From: Flavobacteriaceae bacterium
Lineage (GTDB): Bacteria > Bacteroidota > Bacteroidia > Flavobacteriales_C > GCA-002722245
Assembly: GCA_964230605.1 (NCBI GenBank)
Contig: CAXRIN010000083.1
Location: forward strand, 2,643 to 66,642
Length of the DNA stretch: 64,000 bases
Direction: 5' to 3'
Below, one piece after another: positions 48,848-53,912 of the stretch. A program made the translations under genes and the position numbers. The first letter of the stretch is position 1; every line of letters begins with the position of its first letter. Under the pieces are notes generated by a model that worked only from the letters and a program-made list of their open reading frames with translations, was not told the origin of the DNA and searched no databases.

Positions 48848-51800
48848 TTATCCTTTAAACTCTTCAATCAATTGAACATTCGCTTCACTAACTTTCTTGT
48901 TAGATAAAACATTCGGTGCGTTGAATAGATAATCTTCTCCAGAACCTGTTTTAGGGTAGGCCATTACGTCTCGAATGGAGTCTTTTTTCTCTAGGATCAT
49001 CATTAAACGATCAAGTCCCCAAGCGATTCCTCCATGCGGTGGCGCTCCGTATTGGAAAGCTTTGTAAACATTTCCAACTGACGCCAACATTTCATCATGA
49101 TTGTATCCCATGATTCTGAAAGTAGCAGCTAAAATATCCCCTCTATGGGCACGTACTGAACCTCCTCCAATTTCGTAACCGTTCAAGATTAAATCATATT
49201 GTTGCGCTAATATTTCTCCTGGGTTTTCTCCTTTCATGTGTTGTTCAACATATTCAGGTTTAGGCATTGAGAAAGGATTGTGTGAGAATGTCCATCCTCC
49301 TTCTTCTTTTTCCTCAAATTGAGGGAAGTCAATTACCCATGCAGGTTGCAATACATTCTTAGGTATCAAGTTTAACATCTTACCTAATTCTTGTCTAACT
49401 GCATCTAGTGCTTTGTTTGCTGTACTGAAATCAGCAGCTGAGAAGAAAACGATGTCTCCAACTTTCGCATCCATGATTTCGATGATTTTAGTACCTACAT
49501 CTTCTCCTAGGAATTTGATTATTGGAGACTGTAAATCGTTCTCATTTACAATGATATATGCTAATCCACCTAAACCATGGCTTTGAGCTAATGAAGTAAG
49601 CTTTTCAATAGCTCCTTTAGACATTCTTGAGGTTCCCATTTCTTCTTTCGAAACCTTAATGGCTTTTACGATTCCACCATTTTCAATTGGGTTTCTAAAT
49701 ACTTGAAATGGAGTGTTGGCTACAACTTCAGTAATGGTTTTCATTGGTAAACCAAAACGTAAGTCTGGACGGTCACAACCATATTTTTCCATCGCTTCAG
49801 CGTAGGTAATAGTAATGAAGTCCTTCAACTGCCACTTTGAATTTTTGTAAACCGTTTTAACAACATTAACAAACATGTCACTGTTGAGTTTGATGATTTC
49901 GTCCATTGAAGCGAAAGACATCTCTAAGTCCATTTGTGTGAACTCTGGTTGACGATCACCTCTTGAATCCTCATCACGGAAACAACGAGCGATTTGGAAG
50001 TATCTTTCAAAGCTTCCTACCATCAACATTTGTTTGTATTGTTGTGGCGCTTGTGGAAGCGTATAGAATTTCCCTTTGTGCACCCTTGAAGGAACAATGA
50101 ACTCACGAGCTCCTTCGTCTGTACCACCAGATAGGATAGGGGTTTCAACTTCAATAAAGTTCTGTTCGTCCAACATGTCACGGATTAATTTAATCACCTT
50201 GTGACGGTTGATGATTGCTTTTTTCGTAGACTGGTTTCTGTGGTCTAAGAATTTGTATTCCATACGAACAGATTCGTTCGTTTTATCAGCTTTCTTAATC
50301 TCGAAAGGTAAGTTCTTAGCAACGTTTAGGACGTCGATATGATTTGCAACTAATTCGATGTTACCTGTTCTGGTGTTAGGGTTAACATCATCAGCAGCTC
50401 TTTCTATAACCTGTCCTTTAACAGCAATTACAGATTCATCTTTCAATTTCGCGATATCGTCAATGTCTGCCACTTGATCACGAGTTACTCTAACTTGAAA
50501 AACTTCTCCAGAAGCGTCTCTAAGATCAATGAATACTAACTCACCGTGGTCTCTGATAGAGGCGATCCATCCACCAAGTGTTAGTTCTTGGTTTAAGTTT
50601 TCTTTGGAAACTTCTGTAATTCTATGTGTTCTGTAAGTATCCTTAACGATTCTTATATCTTGATACTTGGACGGCGTATCATCGTTTAAATCACGTTTCT
50701 TAGCCTCTTTAGTAACTCCTTTGGCTTGCTGTGAGTCACCAGCTCCTTCTGAAGCATTAGTATCTACTGTGCAGGCTGCAAGAATTTTCTCTCGAATAAT
50801 CTTTCCAGAAACTCCTTTTCCAGTCTTTGCCATTACCTGAGGGACTAAACGACCAGCTTGTCCTTGATTTCCTCCTGCGATAGCAGCAACAATCTCGGCA
50901 TTAGCAGCAACAGCTTCAGCTACTGCAGCGTCAATCTGTTCTTCACTTACCGTGTTGGCTTTGATGAATCCTTCATAATCAAAACCAGCGTCAGCATAAA
51001 GTTTTTGGAACCCTTCTTTTACAATATTTACAGGAATTGTGTTGTTAACAAATTCTTTAAGTAAAGATTGGTAAGGTTTTAATTCTGAGAAGTTTGAGTA
51101 TTCTTCAGGTTTTACGTTGTTCATCAAGACAGTGGCTACTGCTTTAATATCGTTAATCCCTTTGTTTAGTCCAATTACAACTCTTGATCTTTCTTTATCT
51201 CCCGAAAAGAATTTAGCATCTTGCGGACGAACACCTCCAGTAATTAATTCTTCTTCTACAACTGTTGGTAATAACGAAACATCAACCTTAGTTCTTTCTT
51301 TTAGGTCTGAAACATCTAACCAAGGAATGTCAGGTTCTTGCGAGAAACGGTAATCAGCAGCATCTTCCTTAGAACGCATTACACGAGTTACTTGAGCTTC
51401 GGCATCCCATTGTGCTGTTACCTGATCTGGAGAGGGAACACCATGTTCCTCGTAATAGTTTAATTGCTTTGTAACAGCCTCTGCAACTGCTTTAGACATG
51501 AATGCAAAGGAGTTCAAGTTTTTAATCTCTGTACGCGGGTTTAAATCGTTTGTCCCTTTTTTTCTAAGTGAAATAGAAACATCCGAACGCATTTGACCTT
51601 TTTCCATGTCGGCATCCGAAACACCTAAATGACGAACGATTTTTTGGATATACTTAGCGTACGTCTCAGCGTCCTCTACTTTATGCAAACAAGGTTCTGT
51701 AACGATTTCAACAAGGGGAGTACCACATCTGTTGTAATCAACTAGAGAGTACTTATCTGTGTGAACTAACTTACCAGCATCTTCTTCTAAGTGTGCGTGG

Positions 51801-52189
51801 TGTAATTCAACAGTAAAATCAGTTCCGTCATCTCTAAAACATTTAACATAACCACCATCAATGATTGGATGATCAAGTTGAGTTAACTGGAAGTTTTTAG
51901 GTAAATCGGGGTATTGGTAGTGCTTACGATCCCATCTTACTAAATCTGGAATCTTAGCATTTAAACCAGCTCCAAGGATGATTGATTTCTCAACCGCTGC
52001 CTTGTTTAATTCAGGTAAAGTACCCATTTGCCCCGTACAAACCGGACAGATATTTTCGTTAGGAGTAGTTGATTCTTCATTATCACATGAACAAAACAAC
52101 TTGGTTTTAGTGTTTAATTGTACGTGAGTTTCAACTCCCATTACAATTTCATATCCTAACTCTTCAATCTTTTTATCTAATGCAGTCAT
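48848..52189 (-). CDS. gatB/aspS: fusion protein: GatB (amidotransferase subunit B) + ~45-aa linker + bacterial-type aspartyl-tRNA synthetase
   Basis: Single uninterrupted ORF. GatB motifs are [39 protein letters not shown] and the YqeY-like tail. AspRS motifs are [56 protein letters not shown] and [13 protein letters not shown]. The track's TTG start at 52210 lies in a heptamer array, so I prefer ATG 52189. Confidence 0.85.
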   Translation of the reverse strand: [1113 protein letters not shown]

Positions 52190-52197
52190 TGTTTTTA

Positions 52198-53658: not shown

Positions 53659-53660
53659 CT

Positions 53661-53912
53661 TTATTGAATTACTTTAGGTACAACTAAATAAGTTCCTTGC
53701 TTAGCAGGGAAGTTTTCCATAATCAAAGCTTTTTCTTCAGGATCGCAATTTATAACCTCGTCTTCTCTTAGGTTGTCTGATTTAACGATGTGATCCTGAG
53801 CACCTTCAGTACTTATGTCTGAAACATTTTTAATCGTTTCAAAGAAGTCGGTGATTTTAGAGATGTTAACCTCCTCAGCTCTGATGTTTGAAAGTTGTTG
53901 TAGTTTATCCAT
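53661..53912 (-). CDS. gatC: Asp-tRNA(Asn)/Glu-tRNA(Gln) amidotransferase subunit C
   Basis: 83 aa from ATG 53912 (MDKLQQLSNIRAEEV...LREDEV...GTYLVVPKVIQ). The track's longer TTG-started version begins inside a heptamer array. Confidence 0.75.
   Translation of the reverse strand: MDKLQQLSNIRAEEVNISKITDFFETIKNVSDISTEGAQDHIVKSDNLREDEVINCDPEEKALIMENFPAKQGTYLVVPKVIQ

Novelty: non-covalent AspRS/GatCAB/tRNA transamidosome complexes are established, for example in Thermus thermophilus. I do not know of a described natural GatB-AspRS fusion.

Divergence: the GatB module differs at motifs I remember as near-invariant. It has [10 protein letters not shown] where I recall FDRKNYFYPD, and DYRFSQEPD where I recall DYRYFPEPD. 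This hints at a specialised paralogue rather than the housekeeping gatB.
How to check it: 1. Map raw reads or re-sequence across 50600-50800 to exclude a missed stop or frameshift.
2. Run an HMM scan of the 1113-aa protein. Expected hits are GatB_N, GatB_Yqey, tRNA_anti-codon OB, tRNA-synt_2 and GAD.
3. Run a domain-architecture search (InterPro/CDART) for GatB plus class II AspRS in one polypeptide, and record its taxonomic spread.
4. Search the rest of this genome for a second aspS, a second gatB, asnS, glnS and asnA/asnB. This would show whether the fusion is the only route to Asn-tRNA or asparagine.
5. Inspect the anticodon-binding loop for discriminating versus non-discriminating AspRS signatures.
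6. Predict the structure of GatC/GatA/fusion with tRNA(Asn) and compare it with the T. thermophilus transamidosome geometry.
7. Run in vitro aminoacylation and transamidation assays.
What would refute it: Resequencing shows a stop codon or frameshift in the 50636-50767 linker. HMM or structure searches fail to support either module. Proteomics shows two separate polypeptides. The novelty claim alone falls if this architecture is already widely annotated and characterised.
Basis: partly seen in the sequence, partly recalled or inferred. Interest (0 to 1): 0.85.

Follow-up and report, generated by a model that had tools for sequence, protein, structure and literature searches.

The closest described systems are the bacterial transamidosomes of Pseudomonas aeruginosa (ND-AspRS/GatCAB/tRNA(Asn), PDB 4WJ3) and Helicobacter pylori (PMC3367201). 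The gatC-gatA-gatB::aspS operon analyzed here codes for the same four proteins, among them a bacterial-type AspRS that contains GAD, and the same chemistry is predicted; the fused AspRS aligned to chain 4wj3_M with 441 bits, the fused GatB to chain 4wj3_B with 217 bits. In the two bacterial systems, however, GatB and AspRS are separate proteins that meet in transient complexes, whereas here a linker of about 45 residues connects them into one polypeptide. The GatCAB of this operon also belongs to a divergent clade, and half of the non-discriminating signature is present in its AspRS. Thermus thermophilus and Deinococcus (AspRS2 and GatCAB, PDB 3KFU) share the genomic logic of the fusion: AsnRS and GlnRS are present and an asparagine synthetase is absent, thus GatCAB is kept for making asparagine on the tRNA (PMC4206432). 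The Thermus enzyme is a second, archaeal-type AspRS without GAD in a non-covalent complex; the AspRS in the window (the whole stretch of 64,000 nucleotides that was analyzed) is in contrast of bacterial type with GAD, fused and probably the only AspRS of the cell.

A natural covalent link between AspRS and an amidotransferase subunit exists likewise in the AspRS-GatC fusion (NF009460 / PRK12820), there with GatC as partner and an N-terminal AspRS, here with GatB and a C-terminal AspRS. Membership of the window protein in NF009460 was rejected (474 bits versus a cut-off of 1379). NCBIfam holds, besides AspRS-GatC, the LysRS-MprF fusion. The latter, LysX (NF002821), and the fungal ErdS (PMC13219428) join a synthetase to the enzyme consuming its aminoacyl-tRNA, as is proposed here, but their second enzyme, a lipid aminoacyl transferase, is unrelated, the order of the two enzymes along the polypeptide is reversed and the product leaves translation. 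ErdS, an AspRS-transferase fusion, hands Asp-tRNA between its own domains: the tRNA stays bound while the CCA end swings between two active sites (PMC13219428). Deinococcus GlnRS carries a GatB-type YqeY tail covalently on a synthetase as the fusion does, though it is the tail only, without amidotransferase activity and C-terminal on a class I GlnRS (PMC1865053).

The initial annotation knew of no described natural GatB-AspRS fusion. Literature and structure searches agree insofar as they found neither a paper describing or testing such a fusion nor a solved chain spanning both modules, but the architecture is already named by NCBI, and relatives are encoded in 527 stretches of species genomes. 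The name in many RefSeq genomes, 'bifunctional amidotransferase subunit GatB/aspartate--tRNA ligase AspS', is an annotation label. These RefSeq proteins of 1101-1123 aa (Polaribacter, Flavicella, Wenyingzhuangia, Jiulongibacter and others) resemble the window protein in architecture, the five Pfam domains and the operon and are 58-60 % identical to it across 98-100 % of the length. The window protein differs from them as a separate subclade with its own linker sequence and a 41-nt spacer between gatA and the fusion.

Organization of the operon and the fused gene

The gatB::aspS fusion joins the enzyme that loads aspartate to the subunit that converts tRNA-bound aspartate into asparagine. The open reading frame is located on the minus strand (48848..52210, 1120 aa counted from a TTG) and, read from the ATG at 52189, comprises 1113 aa without interruption (48848-52189). 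Since the N-termini of the homologues coincide with this ATG (gap fraction of 0.01 across the first 20 aligned residues), it is the likely start codon. All motifs quoted in the initial annotation were found in the translation, and its reading of GatB joined to a complete bacterial-type AspRS in one frame was borne out by scores above curated cut-offs for both modules: 716 and 655 bits for the NCBIfam bacterial aspS models (cut-offs 443 and 374), 422 and 349 bits for the GatB models (cut-offs 338 and 315). The five Pfam domains it had expected were all recovered.

The catalytic cradle domain of GatB (residues 13-300, 51290..52153) matched Pfam GatB_N (residues 16-295, E 1.7e-98) and aligned to the GatB structures of Aquifex, Thermotoga and Thermus. 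The helical and YqeY-like tail domains (residues 301-470, 50780..51289; GatB_Yqey at 373-470, 35 bits versus a cut-off of 27) are modeled as helices with a pLDDT of about 80-90 and are the most divergent folded part of the fusion, with 44 % identity between clades. After the linker (residues 471-518, 50636..50779) follow the anticodon-binding OB domain (residues 519-640, 50270..50635; Pfam tRNA_anti-codon at 537-621, 39.9 bits), which aligns to AspRS structures, and the class II core, matched by tRNA-synt_2 at residues 638-1081 (E 8e-107). The core is divided into an N-terminal part with motifs 1 and 2 (residues 641-820, 49730..50269) and a C-terminal part with motif 3, GGGSVRAH (residues 946-1113 and the stop codon, 48848..49354). 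Between them lies the GAD insertion, a hallmark of bacterial-type AspRS (residues 821-945, 49355..49729; Pfam GAD at 831-928, E 3.7e-21), which is 71 % identical between clades. Over their full length, both modules can be aligned with solved structures of AspRS and GatB. The AlphaFold model of the fusion matched GatB chains with a target-normalised TM of 0.67-0.76 and bacterial AspRS chains with an E value of about 1e-35, but its confidence is low for the core of AspRS (mean pLDDT 65.8), and the model is uninformative on the geometry between the modules.

Upstream on the same strand are gatA (52231..53658, 475 aa, the glutaminase subunit; Pfam Amidase E 3e-116) and gatC (53661..53912, 83 aa from the ATG at 53912; Pfam GatC 29.3 bits, cut-off 23), with gaps of 2 nt between gatC and gatA and 41 nt between gatA and the fusion, as initially annotated. 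The gatA translation carries the signature motifs GGSSGGSA and GGSIRQP and is 56-63 % identical to the gatA 5' of the fusion in distant relatives; a small gatC-homologous ORF directly 5' of gatA was present in nearly all related loci. GatA scored slightly below the equivalog cut-off of TIGR00132 (462.5 versus 481 bits) and GatC below that of TIGR00135 (34.6 versus 47.1 bits), thus the whole GatCAB set is divergent. Within the 41-nt spacer (52190..52230), the heptamer AGTTCAA (plus strand) is perfectly repeated in tandem 4.4 times (52197-52227); this array is not conserved in the relatives, where gatA mostly abuts or overlaps the fusion start. The proposed terminator at 48795..48825 was recovered on the minus strand as an intrinsic-terminator-like hairpin at the operon end with a 13-bp stem (5 GC pairs), a loop of 5 nt and a T-rich TTCTTTT tail. 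About 35 nt 5' of the gatC ATG, GAAATTTG (53947..53954, minus strand) is tentatively suggested as promoter element of the operon; it resembles the Bacteroidetes -7 box TAnnTTTG, and an (A/T)TTTGC-like element occurs at the equivalent place in four related loci (L005, L006, L008, L009).

Conservation of the fusion

For relatives, 185,579 species-representative genomes were searched for stretches that match either of two motifs of the family, and the best 80 of the 527 stretches were fetched; the junction was examined in 85 loci, 84 fetched ones and the window. A single stop-free segment with both family motifs was present in 84 of the 85, the exception being a 5'-truncated contig. More than 120 full-length fusion homologues with 58-94 % identity came from independent assemblies including complete genomes. 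Named Polaribacter species or strains with the fusion number at least 25, and more than 10 complete genomes of the genus carry it. The nearest relative of the window protein is encoded by a Flavobacteriales MAG (SP330, 92 % identity), and a MAG labelled Saprospiraceae carries a relative with 78 % identity. Flavobacteriales, Cytophagales and Bacteroidales share the gene order gatC-gatA-gatB::aspS amid unrelated flanking genes; Aminipila and a UGA=Gly lineage have the fused architecture as well.

Invariant in all 121 aligned proteins were the GatB residues E20, H22, D87, R88, K89, E135, E136, E161, D203 and E221 as well as the AspRS residues R738 and R746 (N-terminal part of the core), R1013 and H1015 (C-terminal part). 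Neither module lacks a part or a catalytic residue, and strong purifying selection acts on both. A missed stop codon, a frameshift, a chimeric assembly or a dead remnant in place of one module hardly deserves consideration: the one open frame is kept in isolates and MAGs that many groups sequenced and in the complete Polaribacter genomes, both modules score above curated cut-offs and retain their catalytic residues, and the 84 stop-free loci from independent sources effectively refute an assembly artefact. Support for such a reading was not found; the only irregularity was the inconsistent gene calling for the Aminipila fusion in RefSeq, with 584-aa entries starting within the linker. The fusion and its intact junction are therefore real, well past what chance or an artefact could produce.

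No other part of the operon is conserved as well as the AspRS module (65-68 % identity across orders versus 50-53 % for GatB), and this fits an essential housekeeping role.

tRNA specificity and number of gene copies

The anticodon-binding domain, whose loop the initial annotation had proposed to inspect, gave a divided result. The non-discriminating histidine is present in an RDHG motif (H548, invariant in 121 proteins) that is common to mycobacterial AspRS chains deposited as Aspartate--tRNA(Asp/Asn) ligase; the discriminating E. coli AspRS has Leu in this column (RDLG), Elizabethkingia Lys. In the column with Gly in mycobacterial and Lys in E. coli AspRS, the fusion family has Asp or Glu (D600, 104/121). 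D601 and T606 occupy the columns of L81 and L86 in H. pylori AspRS. The non-discriminating signature is thus incomplete; the fused AspRS would probably be non-discriminating, as the invariant histidine suggests. A tRNA(Asn) gene was found neither in the window nor in 60 related loci.

Family-specific substitutions were observed in both modules at otherwise near-invariant positions (WDRKHY[EQ]Y, DYR[FY], TDEGAREF and HNPFSMP, each in 121/121 proteins); in the C-terminal part of the AspRS core, a family-specific 'HN' (H970, N971) replaces the 'HH' of all aligned solved AspRS structures. The deviation from FDRKNYFYPD initially noted in GatB is in one residue ordinary, since Aquifex GatB also has RKHY. 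These substitutions, the GatA and GatC scores below equivalog cut-offs and the isolation of the whole family as one cluster at 50 % identity would suit a second system, with a fused AspRS dedicated to tRNA(Asn) like AspRS2 of Thermus and Deinococcus and a canonical discriminating aspS, possibly also another gatB, elsewhere in the genome. Such a reading comes down to the specialised paralogue of the initial annotation, of which the divergence of the GatB clade stands. As a second system beside housekeeping genes, though, it is rather unlikely in view of the high conservation of the AspRS module and the gene content: in 84 loci, the surrounding 6-10 kb contain no further aspS or gatB, and Polaribacter sp. 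MED152 has asnA 0, asnB 0, gatCAB 1, aspS 1, asnS 1, glnS 1 and a U1-A72 tRNA(Asn) (PMC4206432, Table S1). Other Flavobacteriaceae and Weeksellaceae identified by name in this table have gatCAB 0 throughout, and most have asnB or asnA (PMC4206432). The census concerns a single genome of a genus that carries the fusion genus-wide, MED152 itself not being confirmed as carrier; the fused proteins are labelled 'aspartyl-tRNA synthetase' by JGI, so the aspS counted may be the fused gene itself. This one published census suggests that the cell has no AspRS but the fused one and obtains its asparagine through it, instead of keeping it as a spare paralogue. The pattern of one gatCAB without asparagine synthetase is not universal, as seen in Leadbetterella byssophila, a close relative of Arcticibacterium and Jiulongibacter, which carry the fusion. 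Here asnB 1 stands beside gatCAB 1 and aspS 1 (PMC4206432).

The linker and a proposed tethered transamidosome

The operon probably encodes a covalently tethered asparagine transamidosome for the conversion of Asp-tRNA(Asn) to Asn-tRNA(Asn). This proposal of the initial annotation was kept as the best functional hypothesis on account of the complete modules, the conserved operon and the intact catalytic residues. The AspRS module, an obligate class II dimer, would charge tRNA(Asn) and tRNA(Asp) with aspartate. GatB, which the flexible linker (about 45 residues) ties to the N-terminus of AspRS, would form a complex with GatA and GatC and would phosphorylate and then amidate the tRNA-bound aspartate with ammonia obtained from glutamine via GatA, yielding Asn-tRNA(Asn). 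The tether may hold the mischarged Asp-tRNA(Asn) beside the amidotransferase and set a 1:1 stoichiometry, (GatC-GatA-GatB::AspRS)2, which is also the composition of the non-covalent P. aeruginosa complex. A channelling of the substrate between the two active sites, by a swing of the CCA end as in ErdS, is proposed by analogy. In these Bacteroidota, which have AsnRS and GlnRS besides, the likely role would be the tRNA-dependent synthesis of asparagine itself, and the gatCAB-fusion pathway would supply this amino acid.

The linker measures 41-53 residues (median 45, 121 proteins), with E, K, S, T and A as abundant residues; its identity between clades is 14 % versus 44-72 % for the domains. AlphaFold assigned a pLDDT of 25-29 and no secondary structure to residues 475-506, hence the linker is predicted to be disordered, and a conserved Met or internal start was not found in it among the family proteins. 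Its length is constrained. The unconstrained linker sequence could also indicate a fusion without channelling: both activities would be real, the linkage would provide equal dosage or stability and Asp-tRNA(Asn) would diffuse as between separate enzymes. Stoichiometric co-expression alone can fix a fusion. In H. pylori, the bacterial-type transamidosome forms a dynamic and not a stable complex (PMC3367201), and an adjacent but unfused gatB-aspS pair (L086) and a stand-alone GatB of the fusion's subfamily (L085) indicate that GatB and AspRS are able to work unfused. We consider co-expression without channelling improbable in view of the narrow range of linker length across orders, the return of the fusion in unrelated lineages and the domain order, always from the GatB tail to the AspRS anticodon-binding domain, the two of which hold one and the same tRNA by its body. 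The tethered transamidosome is also favored by the recurrence of the fusion in unrelated lineages, which argues for its selection: the same architecture is present in the UGA=Gly lineage and in Aminipila (Clostridia), the latter with a canonical-type GatB and identical operon order, and in both the linker has, by eye from the sequences, about 33-40 residues.

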